A DNA stretch of 64,000 nucleotides, taken from positions 1 to 64,000 of IMG/VR virus record IMGVR_UViG_3300042402_003388. The stretch is one strand, 5' to 3'. The position numbers and the translations under genes are program-made. Positions 39,618 through 61,585 of this stretch are shown in pieces. The notes beneath the pieces are model-generated. The model was not told the origin of the DNA, made no database searches, and worked only from the letters and a program-made list of their open reading frames with translations. Positions within the stretch are counted from its first letter, which is position 1. Each line of letters begins with the position of its first letter. Source of the stretch: a virus.

Positions 39618-40292
39618 TTACCCCTTCTTAGATTTTACGATTTCATCAATGATACCGTAATTAAGTGCCTCTTGTGAAGATAACCATAAGTCACGACTTG
39701 CATCTTTCATTACCTGTTTTGCCGTTTTATCACAGTAACTACCAAGTAATTCAAATAGAGTCTCGTTGATTTTTTTCCATTCTTTCATATCGATTTCCGC
39801 ATCTTGGATATTTCCACGGAATCCCCCTGAAGATTGGTGTAACATTGTTCTTGAGAAACGTAATGAAGAACGTTTTCCTTTAGTACCTGCACCTAACAAT
39901 ACTGAACCCATTGACGCCGCCATACCTGTGTTTACTGTACGGATATCACATTTAATGTAATCCATTACGTCAACCATACTTAGACCTGATTTAACCGACC
40001 CACCTGGACTGTCAATGTGCATTGTGATGTCTGTACTGTCAGCAGAATCCAAGAACATTAACTGAGCTTGAACAATAGTTGACATATTATCATTAACCTC
40101 ACCCGCAACCCATAAGATACGGTCTCTCATTAATCTTGAGAAGATGTCAATTTGAGTTGCTCTCATTTCTCTTTCCTCCAAAATGTATGGAGTCATTGAA
40201 TTCTCAATTTGTTTTGAGTAGTAATCCAAATGACTTGATGGTTTATACAAGTGTTTCGTGTAATACGATTTAAATTCTTTTGCGTTATCCAT
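39618..40292 (-). CDS. clpP: ATP-dependent Clp protease proteolytic subunit
   Basis: DIFSRLMRDRI; IDSPGGSV; GMAASMGS; MLHQ; RDLWLS..EA..YGIID. Confidence 0.95.
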   Translation of the reverse strand: MDNAKEFKSYYTKHLYKPSSHLDYYSKQIENSMTPYILEEREMRATQIDIFSRLMRDRILWVAGEVNDNMSTIVQAQLMFLDSADSTDITMHIDSPGGSVKSGLSMVDVMDYIKCDIRTVNTGMAASMGSVLLGAGTKGKRSSLRFSRTMLHQSSGGFRGNIQDAEIDMKEWKKINETLFELLGSYCDKTAKQVMKDASRDLWLSSQEALNYGIIDEIVKSKKG

Positions 40293-40311
40293 AGTTAAAT
40301 TTTAAATTTAG

Positions 40312-40391
40312 TATCAGAGGAGGGACTCGAACCCTCACGCCGTAGCATATGCTCCTAAGGCATACGTGTCTACCAATTCCACCACTCTGAT
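40312..40391 (-). tRNA. tRNA-Leu(TAG)
   Basis: cloverleaf ATCAGAG/CTCTGAT, loop CT-TAG-GA, variable arm. Confidence 0.9.
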
Positions 40392-40602
40392 ATTTGGCCC
40401 CACCTGAGATTACGGTGAGTAGATATTCCTAGTTTTTCCTATTGAAAAACCCTGCGTGTCTTACCACTTAAAACGTCAAACATACTCGGTGGATTTGTTA
40501 CGTCCAGGCTCCGACGAACCCCCTCTCTAAAGTCGTGGAAGGCGACAACTATAACATCTTGAAAGAACGTTACCAAACTTTCAGAGTATCTCTTACTCTT
40601 AG
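40392..40602 (-). ncRNA. unknown ~210-nt structured RNA between Leu tRNAs
   Basis: GC-enriched, multiple hairpins, no credible ORF. Confidence 0.45.
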
Positions 40603-40688
40603 TACTCGGGGCGGGAATCGAACCCGCACGGACCTTACGGTCCATCAGATTTTAAGTCTGACGTGTCTACCTATTCCACCACCCGAGC
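40603..40688 (-). tRNA. tRNA-Leu(TAA)
   Basis: GCTCGGG/CCCGAGT, loop CT-TAA-AA, long variable arm. Confidence 0.92.
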
Positions 40689-40690
40689 GT

Positions 40691-40700
40691 TTCAAAGAAC
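40691..40700 (-). promoter_or_regulatory. boxA-like element
   Basis: GTTCTTTGAA between TACATTTG promoter and tRNA-Leu. Confidence 0.6.
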
Positions 40701-40730
40701 TATGGTACAAATGTACGAAAGAAATTTCAA

Positions 40731-41228
40731 TTAATCAAATCCCATCGAACTTTTATATTCAATCCACACACGTTCAATTGAATTATTTAGAACATCTGAG
40801 AATAAGGATGGTTCATATGGTTTTGCCCTCATATTCAAACCCGCTTCTTGTGGTGTTCTGTCTGCTTTGTATAAATTACACTTATGACAACAAGTTACCA
40901 AGTTACTCCAAGTATTCTTACCACCCTTTGATTTTGGTATAACGTGGTCTAACGTTAATTGTTTTGTTGAACCACAATAAACACATTCTCCATTATCTCT
41001 TCTGTAAATTCTATTTCTGTTAACCCTAATATTCCTAACTCTGTATTTTACATACTTCAATAGACGAATGATTAATGGACGAACAAAATTTTGATAACCT
41101 GCATAGATAGGGTTGTCGGAACTCTTTAAGATTTCCGCTTTACCTTTAAACACTAACTTAAAACCTCTTTGAGGTGAAGTTACGTTTATTGGGGTATAAT
41201 CCGAATTTAATACTAATACTCTATCCAT
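40731..41228 (-). CDS. HNH endonuclease
   Basis: RD...CVYCG...TLDHVIPKSKGG...W.NLV.CC.KCN..K. Confidence 0.9.
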   Translation of the reverse strand: MDRVLVLNSDYTPINVTSPQRGFKLVFKGKAEILKSSDNPIYAGYQNFVRPLIIRLLKYVKYRVRNIRVNRNRIYRRDNGECVYCGSTKQLTLDHVIPKSKGGKNTWSNLVTCCHKCNLYKADRTPQEAGLNMRAKPYEPSLFSDVLNNSIERVWIEYKSSMGFD

Positions 41229-41263
41229 AACTGTGCAAATTTAATACATTTTTTTTATAAAAC

Positions 41264-41293
41264 AAAAAAAGGTCACAATTTCTTGTGACCTTT
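41264..41293 (-). terminator. attenuator-type terminator 3
   Basis: AAAGGUCACAA-GAAA-UUGUGACCUUU + U tract; 5' arm complementary to leader GUGACCUU (41347-41354). Confidence 0.75.
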
Positions 41294-41321
41294 CTTTTAT
41301 ACGTTTTTAGTTTAACTAATC

Positions 41322-41426
41322 TTATTTTTGTTTATCTAAACCGCGTAAGGTCACTATACCATTGCCACATAACGATGTGATAATGTTATCCTGTATCAAA
41401 AGACCTGTGTTGTTATACGTTTTCAT
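41322..41426 (-). CDS. putative leader peptide 3 (34 aa)
   Basis: MKTYNNTGLLIQDNIITSLCGNGIVTLRGLDKQK; contains antiterminator segment. Confidence 0.6.
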   Translation of the reverse strand: MKTYNNTGLLIQDNIITSLCGNGIVTLRGLDKQK

Positions 41427-41458
41427 AAATTACGGTTTTCTTTCTTATAAATATGTTC

Positions 41459-45307: not shown

Positions 45308-45369
45308 AAATAAAATTTGACTTTTTACGTTACATACGTATATTTAATTAAAAACAAGTAAAACTGCAA

Positions 45370-45444
45370 ATGAAAACAACACATATCATACTAATAGGCG
45401 GGACAGATAGAACTGAAGCGACTACTCCAATGGAGATGGTGTGA
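45370..45444 (+). CDS. leader peptide 1 (24 aa) of tRNA array 1
   Basis: MKTTHIILIGGTDRTEATTPMEMV; codons match array-1 tRNAs; TGGAGATGG pairs with terminator arm. Confidence 0.8.
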   Translation: MKTTHIILIGGTDRTEATTPMEMV

Positions 45445-45468
45445 TATTCCTATACTATGAATTCACTG

Positions 45469-45497
45469 AACCCATCTCCAAAAGAGATGGGTTTTTT
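45469..45497 (+). terminator. attenuator terminator 1
   Basis: AACCCATCTC-CAAAA-GAGATGGGTT + T tract. Confidence 0.85.
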
Positions 45498-45520
45498 GTT
45501 TTTAGATTGTTAAACATTTT

Positions 45521-45530
45521 GTTCTTTGAA
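45521..45530 (+). promoter_or_regulatory. boxA-like element
   Basis: GTTCTTTGAA ahead of first tRNA; overlaps a second TTTG..TATCTTTG promoter. Confidence 0.6.
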
Positions 45531-45564
45531 ATATTGGTTGTATCTTTGTAAAAGATTTAAAAAT

Positions 45565-48076: not shown

Positions 48077-48352
48077 ATGAAAAGTTACCTGATTATTAGA
48101 GAGGATTATTTTAATGAAAAAGGAATTGGTAACAATACTCATTTCTGTATTAAAGAATCTAAAAAATTTTTATGGTTTGAATGGTGGTCGTACGTGAAAT
48201 ACAAAGAATGTTACGAAAGTGGTTCATATAACACTGTTTTAAAGTTCACTAATTTATATGAAGCAGAAAAATTTGTTAATGAAGTTTTGTTAAAAAACGG
48301 ACCAAGACAAAAATGGTCATCTATGACCCTAAAAGAAATAAAAGAAAAATGA
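48077..48352 (+). CDS. hypothetical protein
   Basis: 91-aa ORF after TATATTTG. Confidence 0.65.
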   Translation: MKSYLIIREDYFNEKGIGNNTHFCIKESKKFLWFEWWSYVKYKECYESGSYNTVLKFTNLYEAEKFVNEVLLKNGPRQKWSSMTLKEIKEK

Positions 48353-48936
48353 AAACGATATTTTTAGACCACGATGGAGTAATCTGTTTATCCACAGAGT
48401 GGGGTGGTCGTTACAAGAAACAAAAAAAATGGGGAGAACTTAAAATGTCTATGGGGATGAATGAAATCCCTATTGAATTTAGATTTGACAATTTTAATAA
48501 GAAGGCAATCAAAATTCTGAATTCAATTATTGAAGAAACTGGTGCTGAGATAGTAGTTTCATCTGATTGGAAACGATGGGCAACTGTTGAGGAAATGGGA
48601 CAATACTACGAATCTCAAGGGATTATCAAAAAACCAATCTCATTTACTCCAAACTTAAGTGAATGTAATAACTATGATGGTTCATTTCCTTGGAATAGAG
48701 ATTGGGATTTAGAACAAACTCGTACATTAGAAATTAACCAATATTTGAAGGACCATCCTGAGGTGACAGAATGGGTTGCAATCGATGACCTTAATATGGG
48801 AAAAGAGGGGATGTCATATTCAATTAAATGGGTTCACGATTGGGGTTTAGATAATTTTGTACTAACACCAAAAGGTAATGAAGGGTTAAAACAATCAGGA
48901 ATTAAAGAAAAAGTTTTATCTTTTTTAATAAAATAA
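48349..48936 (+). CDS. HAD phosphatase (Swiss-army-knife RNA-repair type)
   Basis: IFLDHDGVI; IVVSSDWK; WVAIDD. Confidence 0.85.
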   Translation: MKTIFLDHDGVICLSTEWGGRYKKQKKWGELKMSMGMNEIPIEFRFDNFNKKAIKILNSIIEETGAEIVVSSDWKRWATVEEMGQYYESQGIIKKPISFTPNLSECNNYDGSFPWNRDWDLEQTRTLEINQYLKDHPEVTEWVAIDDLNMGKEGMSYSIKWVHDWGLDNFVLTPKGNEGLKQSGIKEKVLSFLIK

Positions 48937-48943
48937 AAAAATA

Positions 48944-48974
48944 TTTGACAATTACGGAATTTTTCGTAACTTTG
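48944..48974 (+). promoter_or_regulatory. Bacteroidota-type promoter of leader 2
   Basis: TTTG-N19-TAACTTTG. Confidence 0.7.
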
Positions 48975-49019
48975 TAGTAATTATAGAAACAGGTAGAAAT
49001 ACCACAACAAATAGAAAAA

Positions 49020-49130
49020 ATGAAAAACACTAATAAACATATGAACGTCGTGATTTGGAAACAACAATTTAGTAATTGTTCGTATCCGCGTATTTCGCAT
49101 ACAAGTTCAGTTGATGAAGGTTTAGTGTAA
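49020..49130 (+). CDS. leader peptide 2 (36 aa) of tRNA array 2
   Basis: MKNTNKHMNVVIWKQQFSNCSYPRISHTSSVDEGLV; codons 5-27 match array-2 tRNAs; AGTTCAG pairs with terminator arm. Confidence 0.85.
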   Translation: MKNTNKHMNVVIWKQQFSNCSYPRISHTSSVDEGLV

Positions 49131-49164
49131 TGTAAATAAAATAACATACAACAAATATCTCAAG

Positions 49165-49196
49165 TCCTGAACTCAAAAAGTTCAGGATTTTTTTTT
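49165..49196 (+). terminator. attenuator terminator 2
   Basis: TCCTGAACT-CAAAA-AGTTCAGGA + 9 T. Confidence 0.85.
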
Positions 49197-49206
49197 GTTA
49201 TAAAGT

Positions 49207-49216
49207 GTTCTTTGAC
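49207..49216 (+). promoter_or_regulatory. boxA-like element
   Basis: GTTCTTTGAC right after the terminator. Confidence 0.65.
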
Positions 49217-49236
49217 ATATTGGTAAGAAAAGTAAA

Positions 49237-49308
49237 CGGGGTGTAGTCTCGAGGAGAGACGCGTGTTTTGGGAACACGAGGCGGCAGGTTCGACTCCTGT
49301 CACCCCGA
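49237..49308 (+). tRNA. tRNA-Pro(TGG)
   Basis: CGGGGTG/CACCCCG, loop TT-TGG-GA. Confidence 0.9.
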
Positions 49309-49314
49309 CTATAT

Positions 49315-49388
49315 TGTCACATAGCTCAGTTGGTTAGAGCGTTCGCCTGATACGCGAAAGGTCGATGGTTCGAGTCCATCTGTGACAA
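49315..49388 (+). tRNA. tRNA-Ile(GAT)
   Basis: canonical cloverleaf. Confidence 0.92.
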
Positions 49389-49394
49389 CTTAAT

Positions 49395-49469
49395 GTCTTC
49401 GTAGCTCAGTTGGTTTAGAGCACCTCACTTTTAATGAGGGAGTCACAGGTTCGAGTCCTGTCGGGGACA
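49395..49469 (+). tRNA. tRNA-Lys(TTT)
   Basis: canonical cloverleaf. Confidence 0.92.
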
Positions 49470-49475
49470 CAATAT

Positions 49476-49547
49476 GGTCGGTTGGCCGAGTGGCTTAGGC
49501 GATAGTCTGCAAAACTATCTACACAGGTTCGATTCCTGTACCGACCT
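49476..49547 (+). tRNA. tRNA-Cys(GCA)
   Basis: loop CT-GCA-AA, U73. Confidence 0.92.
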
Positions 49548-49552
49548 CAAAT

Positions 49553-49625
49553 ACGTCTGTAGCTCAGTTGGTAGAGCACTGGTCTCCAAAACCAGGTGTC
49601 GGTGGTTCGAATCCATCCAGGCGTG
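49553..49625 (+). tRNA. tRNA-Trp(CCA)
   Basis: loop CT-CCA-AA. Confidence 0.92.
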
Positions 49626-49629
49626 CAAT

Positions 49630-49703
49630 GACTCAGTAGCTCAGGGGTTTAGAGCAGTTGACTGTTAATCAACGGGTCGTAGGTTCGATTCCTACCTGGG
49701 TCG
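49630..49703 (+). tRNA. tRNA-Asn(GTT)
   Basis: loop CT-GTT-AA. Confidence 0.92.
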
Positions 49704-49706
49704 CAA

Positions 49707-49841
49707 TAGGTTGATTAGGGAATGATTGTACTGATAGTTCGAGAGTGAATACTGACTAGTACAATCGGAGTTTGCAGGTATTCACCCGAGTAATGCTAAT
49801 CGTAAAAACAGATGTCCACTGAACCATCTTCTGTTTTCCTA
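49707..49841 (+). ncRNA. unknown ~135-nt RNA with loop-loop pseudoknot
   Basis: GATTAG/CTAATC, GATTGTACT/AGTACAATC, GTGAATACT/GGTATTCAC, AAAACAGA/TCTGTTTT. Confidence 0.6.
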
Positions 49842-49845
49842 AATT

Positions 49846-49926
49846 GGGAGTGTTGAGCAACGGTTGCTTAGCTGACTGTAAATCAGTGGTCTTACGACAT
49901 TGGGGGTTCGAATCCCTCCACTCCCA
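49846..49926 (+). tRNA. tRNA-Tyr(GTA)
   Basis: loop CT-GTA-AA, variable arm. Confidence 0.9.
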
Positions 49927-49934
49927 CAAAATAA

Positions 49935-49961
49935 AAAAGGGGATATAAATCCCCTCTTTTT
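49935..49961. terminator. bidirectional intrinsic terminator
   Basis: AGGGGAT-ATAA-ATCCCCT flanked by A and T tracts. Confidence 0.65.
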
Positions 49962-49979
49962 CGATTAGGTCGTTATCAA

Positions 49980-50144
49980 TTATTTCTGTTTAGCAATAAT
50001 TGACCATACACCACCAACTAATGTAACTGCAGCTCCGATAAGTTCTTGAACTGTTGAATCAGTTGCAAGACCTTTCATAATCAGGATACCACCCACAAAA
50101 GTAAGTGCGTGTCTAACGATACCTTGGATTTGTTCTTTAGTCAT
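49980..50144 (-). CDS. small two-TM putative holin
   Basis: MTKEQIQGIVRHALTFVGG...GVWS; TATTTATA upstream on - strand. Confidence 0.7.
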   Translation of the reverse strand: MTKEQIQGIVRHALTFVGGILIMKGLATDSTVQELIGAAVTLVGGVWSIIAKQK

Positions 50145-50200
50145 TATAAATTTGATTAAAGGTTTATGCCAGACTATAAATATTGGAAAAACGGTCAAAC

Positions 50201-50271
50201 TGTCCTTTCGTCTAATGGCAGGACACGTGGTTTTGGTCCACGCGGTGGAGGTTCGAATCCTCCAGGGACAA
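50201..50271 (+). tRNA. tRNA-Gln(TTG)
   Basis: loop TT-TTG-GT, U1-A72. Confidence 0.9.
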
Positions 50272-50325
50272 CAAGGGGTTAGGTGGAAACCCAAGAGTAG
50301 GTGATGAGTCTACGTCCACCAAAAT

Positions 50326-50397
50326 ACCGATGTAGCTCAGTGGTAGAGCACTTCTTTCATACGGAAGGTGTCGGAAGTTCAATTCTTCCCATCGGTA
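50326..50397 (+). tRNA. tRNA-Met(CAT), elongator
   Basis: paired 1-72, loop TT-CAT-AC. Confidence 0.8.
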
Positions 50398-50403
50398 CTT
50401 AAC

Positions 50404-50478
50404 AGTTCCTTAGCTCAGTTGGTTTAGAGCACTTCTTTTACACGGAAGGGGTCGTAGGTTCGAATCCTACAGGGACTA
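50404..50478 (+). tRNA. tRNA-Val(TAC)
   Basis: loop TT-TAC-AC. Confidence 0.92.
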
Positions 50479-50485
50479 CAAAATG

Positions 50486-50522
50486 CCAAACTCGGTAGTA
50501 AAACACGTCCAAACTCGGTAGT
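50486..50522 (+). repeat. 14-nt direct repeat CCAAACTCGGTAGT x2
   Basis: copies at 50486 and 50509, just upstream of a TTTG..TACCTTTG promoter. Confidence 0.8.
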
Positions 50523-50633
50523 TTTAAAAAAAGTTTGGTGAATTGAAAAATGTTTCATACCTTTGTATTCACAAACAACGGGGGGTAGGAGTTAGTAAGT
50601 CGGTGGCCTACCCCCCCTGAGACAAGATAGAAA

Positions 50634-50643
50634 GTTCTTTGAA
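50634..50643 (+). promoter_or_regulatory. boxA-like element
   Basis: GTTCTTTGAA after strong GC hairpin 50580-50617. Confidence 0.55.
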
Positions 50644-50652
50644 TTAAAATAC

Positions 50653-50787
50653 TGATAATGGTTTTCCCCACTCAACGGATGTCGACAATCCAGAATGGAA
50701 TCGGAATTCAGCACCCCCTGCCGAGGCCTCGTAAAACTACGATTAAGCAGTTAAGATTGGAGCGAGATGGGTACTCCAACATTATCA
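50653..50787 (+). ncRNA. unknown multibranch RNA
   Basis: closing stem TGATAATG/CATTATCA with four internal hairpins. Confidence 0.5.
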
Positions 50788-50792
50788 TACTT

Positions 50793-50865
50793 GGAACGGT
50801 AGCTCAGTTGGTAGAGCACTTGCCTGAAGAGCAAGGTGTCGGCGGTTCGATTCCGCCCCGTTCCA
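50793..50865 (+). tRNA. tRNA-Phe(GAA)
   Basis: canonical cloverleaf. Confidence 0.92.
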
Positions 50866-50939
50866 CGGAGTCCTGAAATAACAGGAAACCCCCACTCCCA
50901 TATGGCAGCCAGTCCATTAACCTGGTGAAGTGGGGTAAT

Positions 50940-51073
50940 AGTCGAGTGGGCGTAATGAGGGATGGTACCCGAGTCCCCAAGACCAATAGTCCCAGACACT
51001 TGTGGGTTCTATGGAGTCGTAAGGTTGTCTAATCCGTCTTGAACGGTATTCGGTTCGAGTCCGACCTTGACTA
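50940..51073 (+). ncRNA. tRNA-like element (134 nt) with enlarged central domain
   Basis: acceptor AGTCGAG/CTTGACT-A, T arm TCGG-TTCGAGT-CCGA. Confidence 0.6.
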
Positions 51074-51079
51074 CAAAAT

Positions 51080-51181
51080 AGTCAGGAGTCCATTGGTTGG
51101 AGTCACCTCCCCAAGGTTGAGTAACAGTAAGGCTGACTCTTTATGGCAAAGACGGAACAGGTTCGAATCCTGTCCTGACTA
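51080..51181 (+). ncRNA. tRNA-like element (102 nt) with enlarged anticodon loop
   Basis: acceptor AGTCAGG/CCTGACT-A, T arm ACAGG-TTCGAAT-CCTGT, GTCA/TGAC stem with ~28-nt insert. Confidence 0.65.
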
Positions 51182-51185
51182 CACG

Positions 51186-51394
51186 AGTCGAGTAGTATAC
51201 GACTAGTTTGCTCCCGAATGATGAGAAGTGGTGTTACAACCATAGGGACCTGAGCCGATTACTTGAGTCTAAGTCGGTTGGTTAGTGTACCAGTAACAGG
51301 AGTAAGTTAACACACAAGTTCTAACCCCTCACGAAATTGGTGAGTTGCCGCTGAAATTCGGTATTGGGGACAGTCAAAAATGATTGAACGACTA
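51186..51394 (+). ncRNA. unknown ~210-nt structured RNA
   Basis: TTGCTCC/GGAGTAA, AGCCGATT/AAGTCGGTT, CCCC/GGGG multibranch domains. Confidence 0.5.
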
Positions 51395-51397
51395 TAT

Positions 51398-51471
51398 GGT
51401 GGTTATAGCTCAGTTGGTAGAGCACTTGATTGTGGTTCAAGGTGTCACGGGTTCGATTCCCGTTAATCACC
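51398..51471 (+). tRNA. tRNA-His(GTG)
   Basis: G-1:C73, loop TT-GTG-GT. Confidence 0.92.
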
Positions 51472-51477
51472 CAAAAA

Positions 51478-51565
51478 GGAGGAATGGCAGAGTGGTCGAT
51501 TGCACTAGTCTTGAAAACTAGCGTACCGAAAGGTACCGTAGGTTCGAATCCTACTTCCTCCGCCA
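51478..51565 (+). tRNA. tRNA-Ser(TGA)
   Basis: long variable arm, G73, encoded CCA. Confidence 0.95.
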
Positions 51566-51567
51566 AA

Positions 51568-51975
51568 GACCCCACGATTAACGGAAGTATCCGACCGTTA
51601 CGGAGTGTGAACCTGACTTGAAGGCTTCAAGGCTATGGGGGAGGCAACACAAACAAACAAGGATTCCCCATTATGGATTAAGGGGGTAAGGGGCTTTAAT
51701 TAGTCGTAATACAATCCACAAGTTGTAAGAATACTGAACAATCTTACAATACACACTCAGCTTCCGAGTGAGACTCGCCACGTAACTTTGGGGGTAGGGT
51801 GAAGATGTTCTGAGGGTAACCCTGAAATATGGGTGAGAGTAGAAACCCACCGTGGACGGTTACTATGGGCTAACGAATCTTAGTCATATCGGTGAGGGAT
51901 ACTAATGACGCCAGACTATATTAAAAACTAAAAGGTTCTCCTCAAAGGCGGAGGGACGATTCAGGACCTTTTTTA
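51568..51975 (+). ncRNA. 400-nt GC-enriched structured non-coding block (probably several RNAs)
   Basis: successive closed domains, no ORF, ends in hairpin + T tract. Confidence 0.5.
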
Positions 51976-52002
51976 ATCCTACACTTAAAAAATCTAAAAT
52001 AT

Positions 52003-52206
52003 ATGACAGACAAATTACAAGAGTTGTTAGAAACATCTCAAATCGGTGAGCCCGAAATTGTTGACTTATTAAACTCAATGTACAAATTGGTTGAAACTAA
52101 ATTATTTACACAGGATGAGTTCAATGTTGTGTTAGATAGGTTAGGAATCAAACAAGAAGGGAATTCCTTCATTTTTAATGAAGATATGGTTTATACCTTC
52201 AATTAA
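52003..52206 (+). CDS. hypothetical protein
   Basis: 67-aa ORF. Confidence 0.65.
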   Translation: MTDKLQELLETSQIGEPEIVDLLNSMYKLVETKLFTQDEFNVVLDRLGIKQEGNSFIFNEDMVYTFN

Positions 52207-52212
52207 AAGTAT

Positions 52213-52284
52213 AGTCCCTTGGTGTAACGGATAGCACGAAACACTACGGATGTTTTAGTGGGGGTTCGAATCCCTCAGGGACTA
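52213..52284 (+). tRNA. tRNA-Arg(ACG)
   Basis: loop CT-ACG-GA. Confidence 0.9.
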
Positions 52285-52289
52285 CTATT

Positions 52290-52375
52290 GGAAGATTACC
52301 CAAGTTGGTGAAGGGGCTTGTTTGCTAAACAAGTAGGACTGTAAGGTCGCGAGGGTTCGAGCCCCTCATCTTCCG
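52290..52375 (+). tRNA. tRNA-Ser(GCT)
   Basis: loop TT-GCT-AA, long variable arm, G73. Confidence 0.92.
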
Positions 52376-52379
52376 CACA

Positions 52380-56965: not shown

Positions 56966-58048
56966 ATGTTAGAAAGATTGAACAAATATTATGAGGATGA
57001 GTTGGTGCAAAAACAAGTGCACCCTACACTTCCTTTGACTATATGGAACTACACTCCAAAAGTTCAATACGGTGAAGGTAATAACCAATATAAATTTTGG
57101 GATGAAATCACAAAACAATGTCGTGGATTGGTCACCGACAATGAAGGTAATGTAGTTGCAAGACCATTTAAGAAATTCTTTAACATAGAAGAAAAACAAC
57201 ATACTCCAACTGAAGAGTTTGATGTCTATGAAAAAATGGATGGTTCTTTAGGTATCCTATTCAACTATAAAGGTGAGTGGATTCTTGCAACTCGAGGTTC
57301 TTTTACTTCTGACCAATCAGTTAAAGGTACTGAGTTACTTCAGAAATACGATTATGACAGATTGAATCCTGATTACACTTATTTGTTTGAGATAATATAT
57401 CCTGAGAATAGGATAGTTTGTACTTACGATTTTGAGGATTTGGTGTTGTTAGGAATGATACATACTCAAAGTGGTTATGAAGTTAATATCCACTCAGGTA
57501 ATGATGAGGACGTTAGATTCAAAAATCTTTTGAATAACTTGGGATTCAATATCGTTAGGAAGTATGATGGTATATCGGACTACACTTACTTAAAACACGC
57601 AATTGCCGACAATAAAGAGGGATTTGTTGTTCGATTCACTAATGGAGATAGAATGAAGATAAAAGGGGAGGAATACCTTCGTCTTCATAAGATAATGACT
57701 AACCTATCCACTACAGGTGTTTGGGAAGTATTGAGTACTGGTGGTAAAATGGAGGATTACTTGAAGGATGTTCCTGATGAGTTCTACAAAAAAGTTAAAA
57801 TGTACGTTCAAGATTTAAATTATAACTTCTATCGTTATTCTGAATATGCTGGTAAAGTACACGATTATTTTAGATACGGTAAGTATGGTGATAGGGAAGT
57901 TGAACCAACTAAAAAAGAATTTGCGGAACATTTGGTTAATTGTGAGGTACACCCTAAAGTAAAATCTATCTGTTTTGCAATGTGGGATAGAAAACCATAT
58001 GACCATATTATATGGAATCTAGTTAAACCTAAGTTTGAAAAGCTTTAA
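56966..58048 (+). CDS. RNA ligase (T4 Rnl1-like)
   Basis: CRGL; ARPFKKFFN; EKMDGS; TRGSF; FEII; EGFVV; KIKG..Y. Confidence 0.9.
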   Translation: MLERLNKYYEDELVQKQVHPTLPLTIWNYTPKVQYGEGNNQYKFWDEITKQCRGLVTDNEGNVVARPFKKFFNIEEKQHTPTEEFDVYEKMDGSLGILFNYKGEWILATRGSFTSDQSVKGTELLQKYDYDRLNPDYTYLFEIIYPENRIVCTYDFEDLVLLGMIHTQSGYEVNIHSGNDEDVRFKNLLNNLGFNIVRKYDGISDYTYLKHAIADNKEGFVVRFTNGDRMKIKGEEYLRLHKIMTNLSTTGVWEVLSTGGKMEDYLKDVPDEFYKKVKMYVQDLNYNFYRYSEYAGKVHDYFRYGKYGDREVEPTKKEFAEHLVNCEVHPKVKSICFAMWDRKPYDHIIWNLVKPKFEKL

Positions 58049-61199: not shown

Positions 61200-61585
61200 T
61201 GGTGGAGATGGAGAGATTCGAACTCTCGTCTTGTTCACTTTACATATAAGTGACTACACGTTTAGGTCAACATTTTCTAATGTTCCGAAATTCACAATTC
61301 CCTTATTTTATAGTGGTTCGGTTTACTGAGAACTAATCCTCCACTTGTTTCTTTTCAGATAGAAACCACACCTATAAAGACTTCTGTTCCTAGGTTATAA
61401 GTCCGCCGACCCGAATGTTTTTGTGCTTACGCTACAGAAACAAGCTCATCTTGTTTAACAAGACCTAATAGAGCCATTTTGTCTAAAACGTTGCCGTTTA
61501 CAGTTTTGAATCAGTTTTTACGGAATTAATTCAGTTCCGACGTGCCACCGATACGCAACAATGCCAATCGATTCCATTCATCCCC
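61200..61585 (-). ncRNA. ssrA: tmRNA
   Basis: GGGGATG/CATCTCC-ACCA with G3:U, T arm GAGAG-TTCGAAT-CTCTC, internal tag ORF 61495-61427. Confidence 0.93.

Follow-up and report, generated by a model that had tools for sequence, protein, structure and literature searches.

It is still largely unknown by which means phages control when, and how strongly, the tRNA genes that they carry are expressed. What, then, is the role of a short open reading frame (ORF) that is followed by a terminator and stands in front of a phage tRNA array? We studied such a locus in the virus record IMGVR_UViG_3300042402_003388 of IMG/VR, a contig of 100.5 kb with 32.7% G+C and a completeness estimate of 33%. Its first 64 kb (positions 1 to 64,000) constitute the stretch of DNA analysed here and are called the window in the following. 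The contig comes from a large phage of Bacteroidota that is uncultured. Its 29 tRNA genes all fall inside the window, together with one transfer-messenger RNA (tmRNA); 15 of them, all of different species, form array 2 (49237 to 52376). A sequence-only reading of this DNA had proposed that the ORF upstream of array 2 is a leader whose codons sample the tRNAs encoded behind it, with ribosome stalling deciding between termination and read-through. Our comparison with other phages supports this proposal with regard to codon coverage, reading frame, isoacceptor choice, enrichment of cognate codons in the head of the ORF, compensatory pairing and the promoter-less gap behind the terminator. As judged from the sequences, we consider the region 48945-49236 to be a multivalent ribosome-mediated (leader-peptide) transcription attenuator that gates tRNA array 2 and senses the decoding of its own array's codons; we assign this interpretation a probability of roughly 0.8. 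The support is drawn from about 30 independent or semi-independent modules, which were found via their boxA element and not via leader content.

Features of the leader 2 module

48945..48974, + strand: promoter P1 of the Bacteroidota sigma-A type (sequence, pattern scan)
48979..49019, + strand: 5' untranslated region, A-rich, without a Shine-Dalgarno sequence (sequence)
49020..49130, + strand: leader ORF 2 with 36 sense codons and TAA (ATG at 49020, TAA at 49128-49130)
49023..49091, + strand: predicted sensing window, codons 2-24, in which every one of the 15 tRNA species has one or more strictly cognate codons
49104..49114, + strand: antiterminator 5' strand AGTTCAG TTGA, within codons 29-32 (fold, duplex scan)
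49160..49173, + strand: antiterminator 3' strand, which is the terminator 5' arm (fold)
49162..49196, + strand: intrinsic terminator with a 12-bp stem, a CAAAA loop and nine T (consensus scan, fold)
49206..49224, + strand: boxA-type element TGTTCTTTGACATATTGGT, 12 nt before tRNA-Pro (common to leader 1, other phages and Bacteroidota rrn)

Codon content of leader 2

The tRNA genes were called with ARAGORN and with Rfam, the latter by a gathering-threshold scan of the whole window. Array 2 comprises Pro-tgg, Ile-gat, Lys-ttt, Cys-gca, Trp-cca, Asn-gtt, Tyr-gta, Gln-ttg, Met-cat, Val-tac, Phe-gaa, His-gtg, Ser-tga, Arg-acg and Ser-gct. The leader ORF encodes the peptide MKNTNKHMNVVIWKQQFSNCSYPRISHTSSVDEGLV; searches of Pfam and PHROG assigned leader peptides to no family. 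In the sequence-only reading, codons 5-27 (49032-49100) were said to sample every tRNA of the array and no other. The sequence bears out the codons listed there: all of them are cognate to the array's 15 tRNA species, GTC (codon 10) alone requiring extended U:C wobble, and Glu, Asp, Gly, Ala, Thr and Leu codons are absent from this run. The whole array is sampled even under strict wobble, and all 15 species find a cognate codon inside codons 2-24. Since a ribosome usually extends about 15 nt beyond its P site in the 3' direction, a stall within codons 2-24 should leave the RNA from 49104 onward free. Arg (CGT, codon 24), the last species that is sampled only once, is placed at the very limit where a stall would still free the antiterminator strand.

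For a chance test, ORFs were simulated with the codon usage of this genome's long ORFs, under which 57% of codons are cognate to the array. With run limits that are post hoc (codons 4, ACT, and 28, ACA, both specify Thr, and codons 32-35 specify Asp, Glu, Gly and Leu), a run of at least 23 cognate codons within 35 has p = 1.5e-5, and a run of this length that also covers all 15 species occurred in none of 400,000 simulated ORFs. Compared with random ORFs of the genome's codon usage, leader 2 has a joint p < 3e-4.

Alternative structures of the leader 2 transcript

The earlier proposal also held that the end of the ORF can pair with the terminator and disrupt it, and folding of the alternative structures agrees. 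The terminator hairpin at 49162-49190, followed by T9, has a free energy of -15.0 kcal/mol (z -4.3), and none of 200 shuffled sequences folds as well. When the 3' arm of the terminator is omitted (fold of 49100-49178), the segment 49104-49114 pairs with 49160-49173 (TCAA..CTGAACT) at -14.0 kcal/mol (z -2.2; 5 of 200 shuffles are as good). Because the arm 49160-49173 is shared, antiterminator and terminator are mutually exclusive.

Upstream, promoter P1 consists of a -33 element TTG(ACA) at 48945-48950 and a -7 box TAACTTTG at 48967-48974, from which transcription would start near 48979. A TAnnTTTG box at -12 to -5 corresponds to the sigma-A consensus of flavobacteria (PMC9723704), and the arrangement TTG-N17-22-TAnnTTT[G/A] is present upstream of 21 out of 30 leaders in other phages. 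The 15 nt preceding the ATG contain 57% A and 6% G (30 leaders); according to two reports on Bacteroidia, these bacteria have no Shine-Dalgarno sequences and use upstream adenines instead (PMC6847099, PMC13000457).

A second module in the same phage

45317..45564, + strand: leader 1 module with promoter, ORF, antiterminator, terminator, boxA and array 1 (sequence, folds)

Leader 1 has the same anatomy. Its ORF of 24 codons (45370-45444) encodes the peptide MKTTHIILIGGTDRTEATTPMEMV; the antiterminator TGGAGATGG overlaps the stop codon and reaches -17.3 kcal/mol (z -3.7), and the terminator at 45468-45503 reaches -16.6 kcal/mol. The boxA at 45519-45538 is identical to the motif of leader 2 in 18 of 19 bases. 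Array 1 consists of Glu, Ala, Met, two Gly, two Asp, Arg-tct and Thr genes, and codons 10-17 of leader 1 read Gly (GGC), Gly (GGG), Thr, Asp, Arg (AGA), Thr, Glu and Ala.

Two minor observations concern this module. A second promoter-like site, TTTG-N20-TATCTTTG at 45517-45548, overlaps and follows the boxA about 10 nt before tRNA-Glu, and TAnnTTTG boxes before or after boxA occur in several other phages, too. Furthermore, the spacer between the -33 and -7 elements holds an inverted repeat in both leader promoters (48952-48969 and 45323-45340), namely TTACG-N8-CGTAA in leader 2 and ACGT-containing repeats in leader 1. The repeat of leader 2 is kept with one change in the related module L113. 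Such repeats could be operator sites.

Comparison with modules of other phages

Modules were collected by an exact boxA-motif scan of IMG/VR, the ORF was picked by its position, and the array was defined by gaps and by the next module; hence, codon content was used neither in ascertainment by the motif nor in the choice of the ORF or the definition of the array. The scan yielded more than 111 loci, with about 60 places where the motif stands just before a tRNA. At 48 of these places the motif is preceded by a strong terminator at a distance of 0-106 nt, and 47 of these 48 modules possess an ATG ORF of 17-52 codons (typically 20-41) that ends 18-35 nt before the stem. After removal of near-duplicates, 33 modules remained, which fall into a leader-2-like family (n = 23) and a leader-1-like family (n = 10). 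AAA is the second codon in 27 of these 33 non-redundant leaders, and leader 2 is a member of a leader family with the pattern MK(N/T)TxKHM... in other phages. Blastn searches with the leader 2 region and two other leader regions against 50,697 phage records returned tRNA matches only, or none. A search with neighbouring proteins led to two related loci only, and one of them, L114, is without tRNAs at that place.

The anatomy of the region, its alternative pairings and the co-variation between leader codons and tRNA genes across phages are established in this analysis. In the 33 modules, the leaders recall 0.958 of the tRNA species in their own arrays, compared with 0.718 for permuted arrays (z 7.8; 0 of 20,000 permutations), and the precision of the leader codons is 0.59 versus 0.41 (z 8.8). 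Both families contribute: recall in the leader-2 family is 0.983 versus 0.81 for permuted arrays (z 7.2), and the F-score in the leader-1 family has a z of 3.7. The effect persists under strict wobble (0.926 versus 0.682, z 8) and for tRNAs that lie past gaps of more than 150 nt (0.97 versus 0.73, z 6.3), and random ORFs with the codon usage of this genome would be expected to reach a recall of 0.65 rather than 0.96. The signal depends on the reading frame, because recall drops from 0.96 in frame to 0.58 and 0.56 in the two other frames; full coverage is achieved by 26 out of 33 leaders in frame and by none out of frame.

The choice among synonymous codons follows the isoacceptor present in the array. 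Where the array contains only the acg tRNA for Arg, the ratio of CGN to AGR codons is 14:3, and where it contains only tct, 0:7; for Leu, the ratio of TTR to CTN is 16:0 versus 1:11 depending on the isoacceptor present, and Ile behaves likewise. Pooled over Arg, Leu and Ile, the odds ratio is 16.5 (p 4.5e-11), although the modules are related by descent, so that pooled p-values of this kind overstate independence. Moreover, whether an array contains a tRNA predicts whether the leader contains the codon. Trp codons are found in 94% of the leaders with tRNA-Trp in the array and in 19% of the others; the corresponding values are 100% and 18% for Tyr, and 100% and 25% for Pro. Taken together, isoacceptor-matched codons and the prediction of codons by tRNA presence argue for selection on decoding and not on the peptide. 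Individual modules illustrate the same tendency. The leader of L018 is rich in Ser, Leu, Tyr and His, and its array is composed of exactly those tRNAs. Leader 1 has Thr where its relatives have Leu, and array 1 is without tRNA-Leu. L048 carries AGA and a second ATT at the position of AAA and AAT in L045, and the array of L048 additionally contains Arg-tct and Ile-gat.

The distribution of the codons along the ORF is uneven as well. The share of cognate codons is 65% in the head of the ORF, which ends where the antiterminator strand begins, and 46% in the tail (Fisher p 5e-7), as expected if only those stalls are informative that leave the strand free. In most modules, a strand complementary to the 5' arm of the terminator is found in the last eight or so codons of the ORF (mean z -2.2). 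Within the leader-1 family, antiterminator and terminator co-vary through four compensatory states, for example GGAGATGG/CCATCTCC, GGAGAGGG/CCCTCTCC and GGAGAAGG/CCTTCTCC, and a helix between regions 1 and 2 (1:2 helix) of 11-12 bp and about -12 kcal/mol is present, with variant pairs.

One relative in the leader-1 family, L052:1076-1203, has a TAG that cuts the ORF just before the conserved antiterminator word and a recall of 0.5; it may represent a decaying module. A further peculiarity is the word ACATAT (His CAT, then ATG or ATC) at codons 5-7 (49035-49043 and 45381-45389), which is conserved in both families even where no tRNA-His is present, and which in the leader-1 family belongs to the 1:2 helix.

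The boxA element

The same 18-mer is located 6-27 nt before the tRNA arrays of dozens of phages. An identical 18-mer is found about 80 nt before the 23S gene in L130 and L169 and 133 nt before the 16S gene in L173, all of them Bacteroidota, and these sites represent both canonical rrn boxA positions. By its sequence, the motif is thus the rrn-type boxA word of the host phylum. The segment GTTCTTTG was also considered as a weak -7 box, but this was rejected as its main role, since the 18-mer occupies rrn boxA positions and is also found in gaps between neighbouring tRNAs that cannot accommodate a -33 element. Of 120 genome matches to the motif, most lie away from rRNA and tRNA genes. For instance, the boxA word precedes ATTACCG or TTTACACG in Bacteroidales genomes (L116, L119, L135, L142, L164, L168 and others), with no rRNA or tRNA gene within the examined stretch.

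Array 2 and its internal signals

49237..49927, + strand: proximal tRNA block Pro, Ile, Lys, Cys, Trp, Asn, Tyr (ARAGORN, Rfam)
49938..49961, no strand assigned: bidirectional terminator-like hairpin (hairpin 49938-49955), which also ends the convergent holin gene (consensus scan)
49980..50141, - strand: holin gene (Phage_holin_10) inside array 2 (Pfam PF23987, E 7.6e-18)
50201..52376, + strand: distal tRNAs Gln, Met, Val, Phe, His, Ser-tga, Arg-acg, Ser-gct (ARAGORN)

The sequence-only reading had itself cautioned that a terminator and a promoter lie inside the array, and both caveats hold: there is a terminator-like hairpin at 49938-49955 and a promoter-like site at 50535-50565. The pattern scan added a promoter-like site at 50124-50154 and a boxA-like word at 50633. 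All eight distal tRNAs nevertheless have cognate codons in leader 2. Because leaders across phages are tuned to distal tRNAs, polymerases that have been modified at boxA presumably read on past the hairpin.

Proposed mechanism

From these features we infer that the leader ORF is translated, that read-through depends on stalling, that boxA takes part, and how far read-through would reach. The host RNA polymerase would start at the Bacteroidota-type promoter and transcribe the 36-codon leader ORF. If all leader codons are decoded promptly, the ribosome would cover 49104-49114, the terminator would form, and transcription would stop. If a charged tRNA is scarce, the ribosome would wait at the corresponding codon, and 49104-49114 would remain free to pair with 49160-49173. 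The antiterminator thus formed would permit read-through into boxA (49206-49224), where host Nus antitermination factors are probably recruited, and from there into the tRNA genes. The tRNAs are therefore probably made only when ribosomes run short of one of them. The outcome would be a negative-feedback supply loop for the tRNA pool, and leader 1 would do likewise for the complementary tRNA set.

We tentatively extend this model to the biology of infection, and here we would set the chances somewhat below even. Each leader may be a multiplexed device for surveillance of the tRNA pool, in which one hungry codon of up to about 20 species switches on the replacement set, within a phage programme that keeps translation running under attack on tRNAs. 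Shortage might result, for example, from cutting by a host anticodon nuclease or from phage-induced decay of host tRNA. The code would be split over two or three leaders because one sensing window fits only about 20 codons. Further members of the programme would be the borrowed rrn boxA and, on the same contig, an Rnl1-type RNA ligase, an RNA-repair HAD protein and the tmRNA.

Weighing of the interpretations

Apart from the common descent of the modules, several points count against a codon-sensing attenuator. The antiterminator of leader 2 is moderate in comparison with shuffled sequences (z -2.2) and slightly weaker than the terminator (-14.0 versus -15.0 kcal/mol). Its 5' strand is 14-18 nt away from the stop codon that follows, and a ribosome that pauses on this codon may therefore leave part of the strand uncovered. 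The 1:2 helix is unsupported in the leader-2 family (mean z +0.3). With one codon per tRNA, the sensor is less sensitive than in classical leaders, which have tandem codons. Leader 2 is separated from 8 of the 15 tRNAs by the hairpin at 49938, the convergent holin gene and the promoter-like sites at 50124 and 50535, and such signals for termination and initiation inside the array may make the eight distal tRNAs partly independent of the leader. Finally, L113 is the only close relative; it is identical to leader 2 over codons 1-31, with differences only in codons 32-34 and in the spacer, and such identity is consistent with the model but uninformative on constraint.

The absence of a detectable 1:2 helix in the leader-2 family leads to the alternative that survives best. 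Without this helix, the mere absence of a ribosome should favour the antiterminator, and a global block of translation would give read-through. The switch could then be real and its leader translated, and yet it would report general translation capacity, that is, any slowing of ribosomes as in host shut-off or under antibiotics, instead of the state of particular tRNAs. Such a device has no need for codon matching, whereas the leaders track gains and losses of tRNA species and isoacceptors, and the two leaders of one phage divide the code as their arrays do. We regard this alternative as unlikely.

Less probable still is an independent small gene or small RNA, formed by the short ORF and the terminator, with tRNAs that have promoters of their own and a codon match that goes back to chance or shared ancestry. 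Promoter-like sequences of the type TTG...TAnnTTTG do occur between the terminator and the first tRNA in leader 1 (45517-45548), L014, L016 and L095, and internal promoter-like sites are present in array 2. The codon match, however, is specific to the leader's own array, to the reading frame and to the isoacceptor, and the 3' end of the ORF matches the terminator arm by complementarity and changes in concert with it. Moreover, in 15 of the 48 modules, a count that includes redundant copies, the T-run is followed by the first tRNA at a distance of 4-22 nt. A separate promoter does not fit into so short a gap, which indicates that these tRNAs are reached through the terminator; boxA abuts the T-run in 10 modules. 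For leader 2, the pattern scan detected no -7 box in the 40 nt between the T-run and tRNA-Pro. As far as can be told from their sequence, the promoter-like sites after the terminator in some modules, including 45517-45548 in leader 1, suggest basal expression in addition to control by the leader. A reversed, feed-forward logic, in which smooth translation of the leader, enabled by phage tRNAs, promotes read-through by melting the terminator, would suit a stop codon as close as 18-35 nt to the stem, but we give it hardly any weight, as the downstream reach of a ribosome on the stop codon is about 12-15 nt and thus too short for the stem in nearly all modules, and as the strand complementary to the terminator lies inside the ORF, where a translating ribosome masks it and favours termination under smooth translation.

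Relation to known systems

The proposed attenuator is most similar to the leader-peptide attenuators of enterobacteria (ilvGMEDA for Ile, Leu and Val; thr for Thr and Ile; trpL, hisL and pheL). They share a translated short ORF with regulatory codons, a subsequent intrinsic terminator, and an antiterminator that uses the 5' arm of the terminator and is selected by a ribosome stalled on a hungry codon. The 1:2 helix of the classical systems has a counterpart in the leader-1 family, but it is undetected in leaders of the leader-2 type. Other differences are that the phage modules would regulate tRNA genes and not biosynthetic enzymes; that their leaders sample 7-20 tRNA species, mostly once or twice, instead of containing runs of codons for one or three amino acids; that synonymous codons are chosen by isoacceptor; and that the modules are phage-borne and belong to Bacteroidota hosts, with TAnnTTTG promoters and no Shine-Dalgarno sequence. 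In Escherichia coli, pheST with its pheM leader is an example of leader-peptide attenuation acting on a translation gene whose product handles the sensed tRNA; here, however, a single amino acid is sensed, and the target of regulation is a synthetase instead of the tRNAs.

T-box riboswitches resemble the phage modules in that the state of a specific tRNA sets the read-through of a terminator, but they bind the uncharged tRNA directly via a specifier codon and the T-box sequence, without a ribosome. A T-box (RF00230) or another known RNA family was rejected for the present region, because the Rfam scan of the window yielded only tRNAs and one tmRNA and because the signal described here depends on the reading frame. 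Compared with rrn antitermination (boxA with NusB/NusE) and the nut sites of lambda, the phage modules carry an 18-nt boxA word identical to that before 16S and 23S rRNA in Bacteroidota genomes, and the phage seems to borrow the host Nus system as lambda does; in contrast to these systems, the phage boxA sits downstream of a conditional terminator and before tRNA arrays. Leader-peptide attenuation has been reported for amino-acid operons of a flavobacterium (PMC9723704). Our literature search for tRNA genes or phage tRNA arrays controlled by attenuation or by a leader peptide, with subscription journals mostly outside its coverage, found nothing relevant. The mechanism is thus classical leader-peptide attenuation in a multivalent form; what differs is the tRNA genes as the product, the sampler with one codon per species, the isoacceptor matching, the boxA after the gate and the occurrence in phages of Bacteroidota.

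If the model is true, a widespread group of large Bacteroidota phages uses the attenuation principle of trp, his and ilv in a new way. The sensor would read the very products that it controls, per species and per isoacceptor, and would constitute a direct loop of tRNA supply and demand. Leader-peptide attenuation would be extended to genes of stable RNAs and to a phylum without initiation led by Shine-Dalgarno sequences, and the split of the tRNAs into separate arrays in these phages would be explained. The model would also bear on whether phage tRNAs answer the depletion of host tRNAs, including that by anticodon-nuclease defences, which is testable with simple reporters. A possible use of the leaders is as compact natural sensors that follow the decoding of many codons simultaneously.

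Further modules and neighbouring genes

41264..41453, - strand: leader 3 and terminator module, upstream of an HNH-like ORF (motif-based) and two tRNA-Leu genes (sequence scan)

The whole contig was scanned for short ORFs that start with ATGAAA, ATGATG or ATGAAC and end 15-40 nt before a strong terminator. This pattern is restricted to three tRNA regions of the 100.5-kb contig, apart from one false match inside the holin gene. In the region of leader 3 (40250-41453, - strand), an ORF with HNH-type motifs stands between the leader and its two tRNA-Leu genes. The latter have a TAnnTTTG promoter of their own and a boxA-like word AGTTCTTTGAAA at 40701, and ClpP follows at 39618-40292.

Directly upstream of leader 2, the gene at 48313-48936 (+ strand) encodes the HAD domain of 'Swiss Army Knife' RNA-repair proteins (PF18143, E 3e-21). 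A T4 Rnl1-type RNA ligase is encoded at 56966-58048 (+ strand), 5 kb past array 2 (PF09511, E 5e-19), and the tmRNA is located at 61200-61585 (- strand). By their sequence assignments, the HAD RNA-repair gene, the RNA ligase and the tmRNA point to functions in tRNA repair and ribosome rescue that are assembled in one region.

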